DNA of 64,000 nucleotides from Escherichia coli (GCF_024223415.1 NZ_CP100500.1), one strand, 5' to 3'; shown: positions 2,684 to 3,268, numbered from the stretch's first letter. The notes: generated by a model from the sequence alone, not told the origin. Numbers and translations: made by a program.

Positions 2684-3268
2684 TTATGCTTTCCGTACGC
2701 CCGAGGAACTGGCATTTTTCAGAATAATATTATGCCCTGCTGGTGGCTTACCGTTATGCTTATTTTCTGCCTTCATGTTTCTGCGCTCCTGCTGTTTTTT
2801 CTTCATCTCATCCAGTCGCTTCCCCGCGTTCAACTGGTGCTCCTGTGTCACCTCCCCGCACGGATGGCCTTTCAGGTCGTAACGCACGCCACCAGCCATC
2901 AGGGAACGGTAATATCGCACTGAACTGACATAATACGCCAGCGTTGCGCGAAGCGCTCCCTGACCTAATGAAATACCTCTCGCAGTAATATCCTCCATCA
3001 GGTCATCAAATATGCCAACCTTAAGCGGTCTGGGCGATTCCTGGCTGAAAAGTTCAGGCCAGAGCGCGGCAAGGCGTTCAACGCGTCTGATATTTTTTTT
3101 CCGGCTCTTTTCTGATTTGCGTTTTGCTGCCGTCTTCTGTTGTGTTTTCTGCTCGCGGCTCTGCTTTTGCGCTGGTGTGGTTTTATCCGGCTGTTCAGCC
3201 TCCTGCGTCTTTTTCTGCGGTGTGCCGTATATGCCTTTTGGTTTTCGGTTAATGGTCAGCTTTGTCAT
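2684..3268 (-). CDS. FinO/ProQ-family RNA-binding protein-like (about 194 aa from MTKLTIN)
   Basis: C-terminal region (LAALWPELF...PLKVGIFDDL...YYRSL...GVRYDLKGHPCGEV) resembles the ProQ/FinO domain as remembered; Lys/Gln-rich basic N-terminus; strong SD (aagggggag) before the internal ATG at 3268. Confidence 0.6.
   Translation of the reverse strand: MTKLTINRKPKGIYGTPQKKTQEAEQPDKTTPAQKQSREQKTQQKTAAKRKSEKSRKKNIRRVERLAALWPELFSQESPRPLKVGIFDDLMEDITARGISLGQGALRATLAYYVSSVRYYRSLMAGGVRYDLKGHPCGEVTQEHQLNAGKRLDEMKKKQQERRNMKAENKHNGKPPAGHNIILKNASSSGVRKA

Follow-up and report, generated by a model that had tools for sequence, protein, structure and literature searches.

The window analyzed here, a 64,000-nucleotide stretch of Escherichia coli DNA, carries an integrated element of ~11 to 12 kb that lies between tRNA-Pro/yejM and yejO and whose left end falls outside the window. 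On the minus strand of this element is the gene under study (positions 2684 to 3268, with its stop codon at 2684-2686), which encodes a 194-amino-acid (aa) FinO/ProQ-family protein, as judged from the open reading frame (ORF) call, a Pfam match, an identical RefSeq coding sequence, and dN/dS ratios. All the genes around it are encoded on the same strand. Starting beside the tRNA-Pro attachment site (10423-10496), their order is int (8960 to 10219), alpA (8257-8463), a switch region, a DUF4222 gene, a RepA-family helicase/primase-like replication gene (4546 to 5961), iterons, a small ORF, a satellite ssb gene (3686 to 4096), a perC-family gene (3348 to 3668), and the FinO-like gene. A 258-nucleotide (nt) intergenic region then leads into the late operon, whose start (1164 to 2425) comprises a 68-aa ORF (2219-2425) and a lambda-E-like major capsid gene (1164-2219), followed by a decoration gene and a scaffold-like gene. 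The iterons, ~10 copies of TCCCCAC(T) in both orientations directly 3' of the helicase gene, mark the replication origin (4335 to 4548).

A Gram-negative phage-inducible chromosomal island (PICI) is recognized by site-specific integration, a size of ~10 to 15 kb, the absence of tail and lysis genes, and int, alpA, and a pri/rep operon running in one direction, with the origin typically 3' of rep (PMC6092414). All of these features are seen here, the only structural genes being those for capsid, decoration, and scaffold-like proteins. PICIs are further characterized by induction, replication, and packaging that depend on a helper phage. From its gene content and order, the element is best read as an EcCICFT073-type PICI at tRNA-Pro, which agrees with the view of the initial annotation that the gene is carried by a mobile element. 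EcCICFT073 is the prototype Gram-negative PICI and is both inducible and transferable (PMC6092414). It and O-island 51 have the same backbone and gene order as the window's element (int, alpA, DUF4222, pri/hel, ori, ssb, perC, a conserved intergenic region, the 68-aa ORF, capsid, decoration, scaffold-like). However, the FinO-like gene is missing from EcCICFT073 and from the O157 island; the window's element further differs from both in having a RepA-type helicase and in occupying tRNA-Pro rather than a site beside roxA/phoQ.

Two other ORFs of the island deserve comment. The 595-aa ORF at 6455-8242 (minus strand), named "host cell division inhibitor Icd-like protein" in RefSeq, looks over-extended: family matches cover only residues ~188-246 (repressor-like PHROGs) and 474-594 (phrog_2512/24341), and the remainder is of low complexity and overlapped by plus-strand ORFs. 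A sigma-70 promoter match (11 of 12 positions; 7815-7787, minus strand) lies just upstream of the first matching piece. The 137-aa ORF that follows the decoration gene (391-804, minus strand) has a match to the C-terminal portion of profiles for head-maturation proteases (phrog_53, positions 494-566). It is reminiscent of a lambda Nu3-like scaffold, and a homologue is called a head-tail connector in one RefSeq record.

The perC-family gene stands directly upstream of the FinO-like gene in the same operon, and a scan found no promoter-like or minus-strand terminator-like site between the two. The FinO-like gene is the last cistron of the early operon (alpA through primase, ori, ssb, and perC). 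By analogy with characterized Gram-negative PICIs, this operon should be AlpA-dependent, and the FinO-like gene would be expressed after the switch has fired (PMC6092414).

The raw ORF (2684 to 3364, minus strand) could encode 226 aa, with a 5' extension that runs into the end of perC. Translation from an internal ATG at 3268 yields the 194-aa protein, and this codon is preceded by the Shine-Dalgarno sequence AAGGGGGAG (3272 to 3280, minus strand; sequence reading), with a spacing of 5 nt if AAGGGGG is taken as its core. RefSeq/PGAP calls the same 585-nt coding sequence on a 100% identical E. coli chromosome (WP_029400542.1, "ProQ/FINO family protein"), and homologues with 40 to 68% aa identity open with the same MTKLTINRKPKGIYG motif and share the N terminus MTKLTINRKP. 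Because RefSeq uses the ATG at 3268 and the homologues share this N-terminal motif, we take the internal ATG as the true start and reject the 226-aa form, as the initial annotation had proposed on the strength of the Shine-Dalgarno sequence.

The protein is small and basic (22.0 kDa, pI 10.3, net charge +23), within the range of 14 to 27 kDa given for small, basic members of the FinO/ProQ family (PMC9977716). Residues 1-62 (3083 to 3268, minus strand) form an N-terminal extension, delimited by composition, model confidence (pLDDT), and motif conservation, in which a conserved MTKLTINRKPKG motif is followed by a variable, disordered linker rich in K, Q, and T and then by the beginning of a long basic helix. 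With 14 K, 6 R, 8 Q, and 8 T, a net charge of +15, and a pI of 11, it is indeed the Lys/Gln-rich basic part noted at the outset. The FinO/ProQ domain occupies residues 63-163 (2780 to 3082, minus strand) by Pfam PF04352, Foldseek, and alignment to RocC and ProQ, and it includes the pocket residues G85, R107, Y119, and R129. The rest (2687 to 2779, minus strand), delimited by alignment and the model, consists of the end of the C-terminal helix and a 31-aa basic tail that is specific to this variant and absent from the other homologues in the alignment. Pairwise dN/dS in the domain ranges from 0.18 to 0.40 against seven homologues. This marks a selected coding gene rather than a chance ORF, and the gene is under purifying selection.

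The family assignment rests on concordant profile, fold, and pocket evidence. PF04352 (ProQ/FinO) matches residues 63-163 with an E value of 1.7e-26 and 92.7 bits, covering model positions 8-107 of 109. Sequence matches to solved structures were led by the ProQ N-terminal domain (4e-18), FinO (2e-15), and RocC (2e-12), and also included Lpp1663 and NMB1681. An AlphaFold model built from a 46-sequence alignment has pLDDT values above 90 over the domain and below 50 for residues 17-42. Its N terminus is disordered to about residue 40 and continues as a long helix (41-69); next come three short helices (86-97, 103-114, and 117-125), a beta-hairpin (strands 128-130 and 136-139), and a long C-terminal helix (142-172), giving the helical bowl with a two-stranded beta-hairpin that defines the FinO fold. 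Foldseek against the PDB returned 26 matches at E ≤ 0.001, every one of them a FinO-domain structure, with FinO itself (1dvo, 141 aligned columns) ranked first and RocC (7rgt/7rgu), NMB1681, and Lpp1663 among the others; RocC chains superpose on the model with TM scores of 0.8 to 0.85 and an rmsd of about 2.1 to 2.5 Å. The 3'-nucleotide pocket of RocC consists of Gly52, Arg75, Tyr87, and Arg97 (PMC9674577), which align to G85, R107, Y119, and R129, and G85, Y119, and R129 are at least 90% conserved among the 46 homologues. The resemblance of the C-terminal half to the ProQ/FinO RNA-binding domain, proposed initially from the sequence, therefore holds in the profile search, the predicted structure, and the pocket residues alike; neither of the outcomes named there as refuting it, a missing profile hit or a predicted structure without the FinO fold, was observed.

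It is also important to point out where the protein stands within its family. The NCBIfam equivalog models for ProQ (NF003434) and FinO (NF010317) score 76.4 and 75.6 bits, below their cutoffs of 127 and 136. PF04352 was the only domain that a Pfam search found in the protein; a second domain, Tudor included, was not found, and just 31 residues lie past the FinO domain. In a library of 1.8 billion proteins, 2 of 2,580 related 50%-identity clusters reach E ≤ 1e-30. The subcutoff scores for both equivalogs and the lack of a Tudor domain set the protein apart as a distinct FinO-type subfamily, and on these scores it is best placed in the FinO/ProQ family but in none of the named equivalogs. The name "RNA chaperone" comes from family membership, and by the same analogy the protein would be expected to bind RNA.

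Downstream of the gene, the 258-nt region contains a series of predicted signals. T1 (2637 to 2661, minus strand), an intrinsic terminator of the early operon seen in the sequence and in a minimum-free-energy fold, reads AAGCCGGA-GCAA-UCCGGCUU followed by a U run; it has a GC-rich stem of 7 to 8 bp, a GCAA loop, and a U6 tail. T1 is retained in PICIs without the FinO-like gene and also follows perC in other islands. T2 (2583 to 2630) is a long bidirectional terminator hairpin of the conserved backbone, with a 13-bp stem and T/A runs on both sides. Beyond it lies a putative late (capsid-operon) promoter, TTGCGC-16 nt-TATAAT (2482 to 2509, minus strand), in a conserved region with TTGCAA-type repeats; it was read from the sequence, has no match in the consensus scan, and is kept in all six aligned PICIs. 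Between its -10 element and the Shine-Dalgarno sequence of the 68-aa ORF, a terminator-like scan and fold identified a leader hairpin or perfect palindrome, ACTGGATG-AA-CATCCAGT, followed by a U run (2459 to 2478, minus strand), which five of the six aligned PICIs retain. This palindrome may act as an attenuator hairpin or as a DNA operator, and the -10 region of the candidate promoter, GATTATAATC, is itself palindromic.

The late-promoter regions of otherwise different islands share repeats of the TTGCAA(C/T)/TTGCGCAA type downstream of a T1/T2 terminator pair. They lie at 2482-2560 in the window, 9940-10010 in island L030, 9920-10000 in L035, and 10330-10370 in L025. The shared repeats suggest a putative common late activator site, for which PerC is a candidate.

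A search with the intergenic region as a whole matched 620 genomes, and in 437 the match spanned 80% or more of its length; identity is 88 to 93% in EcCICFT073, in O157:H7, and in hundreds of further genomes, whose islands lack the FinO-like gene. The variable element is instead the slot between ssb and T1, which is empty or holds perC alone, perC with a small hypothetical gene, or perC with a FinO-like gene; capsid-forming PICIs have the same variable slot. Because the terminators, promoter, and leader are kept in sister PICIs without the gene, they belong to the backbone, and the position of the gene just before the capsid-operon leader is therefore incidental. The location given by the initial annotation is thus right, at 258 nt upstream of the 68-aa ORF and the capsid operon, but the control that it read into this position is not supported, as the leader is kept without the gene.

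We used E. coli RefSeq genomes and encoding contigs to ask how homologues are distributed. By DNA similarity, intact or decayed homologues occur in 1,075 of 5,426 complete E. coli genomes, at 1,514 places, none on plasmids. A scan of genome contigs yielded only 13 loci, one of them enterobacterial (Escherichia albertii). The exact arrangement of the window is present in nine genomes: it is 100% identical in E. coli strain Ch1 and near-identical in eight others, complete and mostly poultry-associated. Most EcCICFT073-type capsid PICIs lack the FinO-like gene (9 genomes with the arrangement versus 620 with the conserved intergenic region), which argues that it is dispensable for the basic satellite cycle. 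As for its source, matches in true phages were remote (Sodalis phiSG1 and a Shewanella phage), and those on plasmids were mainly FinO at ~35% identity, with a few unannotated or mislabeled E. coli records at 42 to 61%; we therefore rejected true phages and plasmids as the origin.

Homologues were found in two genomic contexts. Intact copies lie in alpA-type satellites with DUF4222, a primase/helicase, an origin, in most cases ssb, the FinO-like gene, and then perC; usually the stop of the FinO-like gene and the start of perC overlap by 4 nt. Terminators resembling T1/T2 come next, with a late promoter that has similar repeats of the TTGCAA type. Nine intact island types were examined, counting the window, and in these the homologue follows the primase and origin, or ssb if present, and perC is adjacent in six. 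Homologues recur at this same last position of the early operon, be it in a PICI, a capsid-forming PICI, or a defense-cargo island. Their replication proteins are of three unrelated kinds (AAA_25/RepA, DUF927, and D5_N/DUF5906), and their late modules are a lambda-type capsid set, a full HK97 capsid-forming PICI (cf-PICI) module, defense cargo, or none. A contiguous proQ-like/perC pair is found in at least 239 complete E. coli genomes. The window's order, perC then proQ, is the inverse of the canonical one and recurs in one decayed island.

In the other context, copies sit beside YfjJ/YagK-type backbones, convergent with the backbone genes, and are often frameshifted or truncated; they carry the same N-terminal motif as the rest of the subfamily. 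This arrangement (L006 and L040-L043, E. coli) is very common; the backbone comprises YfjJ/YagK (inovirus Gp2-like), a helix-turn-helix (HTH) gene, and a gene for a 182-aa hypothetical protein, within large genomic islands with dnd, PTS, or fimbrial cargo. Two arrangements within the alpA-type context are also of note. The Salmonella islands L025, L026, and L027 have two tandem FinO/ProQ-domain paralogues of 213 and 152 aa (9001-9642 and 9657-10115) after ssb and a DUF2158 gene. Islands L032-L034, at the same yejM/tRNA-Pro site as the window's element, are minimal, consisting of int, alpA, DUF4222, a DUF927 primase, ssb, the FinO-like gene, and perC, and end directly after perC without a late module.

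The search for an RNA partner covered the element and its relatives. In the window's element, Rfam (E ≤ 1) matched tRNA-Pro only, with no C4, IsrK, int-alpA, or FinP-like RNA. Among eight related islands, C4/IsrK occurred in three and int-alpA RNA in two, and neither tracks with the FinO-like gene. IsrK and C4 antisense RNA, which are P1/P4-type immunity RNAs, scored above the Rfam gathering thresholds in L025 (3683-4360), L028 (956-1141), and L033 (5233-5421), all three of which have the FinO-like gene, and int-alpA RNA (RF02996) passed in L020 and L004; Rfam detected no C4 or IsrK in the window, L004, L020, L021, or L030. Promoter and terminator scans gave no convincing antisense promoter-terminator pair in or beside the perC-proQ cassette, nor did these searches find a gene-specific noncoding block.

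Several candidate RNAs were considered and set aside. We rejected an antisense RNA from the strand opposite to perC, to the FinO-like gene, or to the 5' end of the helicase gene, as promoter/terminator scans of L030 and L033 gave nothing consistent. Plus-strand terminator-like sites at 3072-3088 and 3216-3229 arise from lysine codons (A runs), and, going by the protein alignment, homologues should lack the A run. As private ligands, T1, T2, and the leader hairpin were rejected too, being identical in sister PICIs without the gene. A plus-strand small RNA running from the palindromic -10 region to the bidirectional T2 is an idea only; its -35 is poor, and the region is not gene-specific.

Taken together, the FinO-like gene is an optional occupant of the variable slot after ssb. 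It is neither the helper switch nor a requirement for the capsid-operon leader. We consider it slightly more likely than not that the protein is an element-dedicated FinO-type RNA chaperone or stabilizer that works on 3' ends of the terminator type when the element passes from early to late expression. We favor this reading because the gene is consistently accompanied only by the early-operon end, perC, and ssb and does not track with any particular switch, replicon, or late module. By analogy with characterized Gram-negative PICIs, entry of a helper phage into the lytic cycle would lead AlpA to induce the early operon, the FinO-like gene included. The 3'-end pocket (G85, R107, Y119, and R129) would then most likely bind RNAs ending in a hairpin and a single-stranded U tail, in keeping with the hairpin plus single-stranded 3'-tail RNAs bound by the FinO/ProQ family (PMC9977716, PMC9674577). 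A hallmark of the family is that its members, as monomers, bind such RNAs with high affinity when the 3'-OH is free. The basic N-terminal extension may help to stabilize or anneal a small set of satellite, and possibly helper, transcripts around the early-to-late transition, its flexibility and charge supplying an annealing activity such as is known from the family, and the protein probably acts together with the adjacent PerC-family regulator. That the element would have its own such protein is consistent with reports that element-encoded FinO-like proteins are narrow in spectrum and serve their own element (PMC9977716). As with RNA binding itself, the ligands and the physiological effect are inferred. 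Several points count against the chaperone reading: Rfam and promoter/terminator scans of the element found no ligand RNA, T1, T2, and the leader hairpin cannot be private ligands, most EcCICFT073-type capsid PICIs do without the gene, any need for terminator binding could be served by host ProQ, and many copies in YfjJ/YagK-type islands are frameshifted or truncated.

Alternatively, the protein might be a trans-acting accessory factor that works with PerC on host or helper expression, through sequestration of, or competition for, host ProQ ligands, interference with helper RNAs, or effects on host virulence genes. This is a serious rival, since the post-ori region is the usual site of PICI interference and accessory genes (PMC6739421), although we judge it unlikely on balance. 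What lies between ssb and the late operon varies among islands, PICI PerC-family genes affect LEE expression (PMC11773190), and the domain and host ProQ are 43% identical across ~98 aligned residues (tblastn of a chromosomal proQ copy). However, PADLOC, which screens for known antiphage defense-system models, gave no match for the FinO-like protein or its neighbors, and high selectivity, not promiscuity, is reported for FinO-like proteins that have N-terminal extensions (PMC9977716).

Control of copy number or replication in the style of FopA/PcnR, in which a stabilized cis antisense RNA would repress translation of the satellite replication protein, is a known role of plasmid FinO-like proteins (PMC9977716), and the gene is a constant neighbor of the replication module (primase/helicase, ori, and ssb). 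We regard this as doubtful, as homologues accompany three unrelated replication proteins, and opposite the 5' end of the helicase gene there is a weak consensus match only, with no credible antisense promoter and terminator and no Rfam match.

The initial annotation had suggested, as an example, that the protein might control the helper switch. It could do so by working with a small or antisense RNA to set silent versus helper-induced states, or it could gate the capsid-operon leader. RNA-based immunity elements (C4 antisense RNA and IsrK) do occur in related islands L025, L028, and L033, and the capsid leader hairpin with its U run is the type of structure that FinO domains bind. However, the gene is the most distal cistron of the operon that the switch induces, and homologues occur beside switch regions of the C4/IsrK type as well as beside divergent, YlcI-type ones that are unrelated to these; their late modules are unrelated too, and the window has neither C4 nor IsrK. 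Moreover, the leader, promoter, and terminators are the same in the EcCICFT073 and O157 islands, and EcCICFT073 is induced and transferred without the gene (PMC6092414). This suggestion was not borne out, and we consider such a role highly improbable. The association with three unrelated primase types and different switch regions disfavors any switch- or replicon-specific role. Least probable of all is a passenger gene with no current function in the window's element, left by mosaic recombination: few capsid-type PICIs have the arrangement (9 genomes), perC precedes proQ in a reversal of the canonical proQ-to-perC order, and many YfjJ-type-island homologues are decayed, but the intact frame, strong Shine-Dalgarno sequence, conserved pocket residues and N-terminal motif, dN/dS well below 1, and recurrence of intact copies at a fixed position in many distinct satellites all speak for a working gene.

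In the literature searched, we found no description of a FinO-like protein on an E. coli phage satellite, and papers on E. coli PICIs and cf-PICIs and satellite censuses made no mention of such a gene; the sole mention on any phage satellite concerned Vibrio (PMC13230959). One review of the family mentions, only generally, that chromosomes contain scattered homologues of phage or plasmid origin (PMC9977716). The domain call of the initial annotation was correct and already stands in RefSeq, and the function it attached was speculation that the comparative data partly contradict. If an element-dedicated chaperone of this kind does bind specific satellite or helper RNAs, it would add a posttranscriptional layer to the satellite-helper conflict. 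Many clinical and animal E. coli strains would then possess a second or further FinO-domain protein beside ProQ, raising the problem of ligand partitioning as discussed for Salmonella.

The point most worth an experiment is the recurring FinO-like/perC module, in which the FinO-like gene is often translationally coupled to perC. A bolder reading, which we put forward as speculative and rather improbable, is that the two genes form a conserved module at the end of the early operon, before tandem terminators and a late promoter, in enterobacterial PICIs, cf-PICIs, and defense islands. It would be the satellite counterpart of the TraJ/FinOP logic of the F plasmid, a transcriptional activator with a dedicated RNA chaperone. 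By way of an RNA partner not yet seen, it would set the timing of late, packaging, and cargo expression or else capture RNAs of the helper or the host.

FinO-domain proteins are known from studies of plasmids (FinO, FopA, and PcnR) and of the core regulators ProQ and RocC. FinO of F-like plasmids (1dvo) is the best structural match to the satellite protein, the long N-terminal helix included. The two share a layout of disordered basic N terminus, long helix, FinO domain, and C-terminal helix, are ~35% identical, and are both encoded by a mobile element. Unlike FinO, the satellite protein is chromosomal, with no copies on plasmids, and in searches of the element (Rfam and promoter/terminator scans for a FinP-like RNA) neither a FinP-like antisense RNA nor a traJ-like target was found. 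FopA (IncI1) and PcnR (IncI2), small FinO-domain copy-number regulators that serve their own replicating element (PMC9977716), are similar in being small FinO-domain proteins on a replicating mobile element, a likeness of description rather than of sequence; they act through Inc antisense RNA on repZ/repA, whereas no equivalent antisense RNA was found in the island. Episomal capsid-forming satellites of Vibrio (cf-PISP) have a candidate ProQ/FinO-like regulator, known by annotation alone (PMC13230959). They are likened to the E. coli satellite gene by that annotation, not by sequence, and differ in being episomal, with parA/repA.

Among solved structures, the N-terminal domain of E. coli ProQ (5nb9) is the best sequence match (E value, 4e-18). 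ProQ residues R32, K35, R58, R69, Y70, and R80, by our own count on the ProQ sequence, which agrees with the 5nb9 chain offset, correspond to R80, K83, R107, R118, Y119, and R129 of the satellite protein. Unlike ProQ, the satellite protein has an N-terminal extension, has no linker or Tudor C-terminal domain, and is not the product of a core gene. The domain of Legionella pneumophila RocC (7rgt/7rgu) superposes on the model, and its pocket residues G52, R75, Y87, and R97 are all kept; RocC, however, is a core-genome competence repressor with the small RNA partner RocR, whereas no partner is known for the satellite protein. Overall, the satellite protein combines a FinO-like architecture with a domain sequence nearest to that of ProQ and a pocket like that of RocC.
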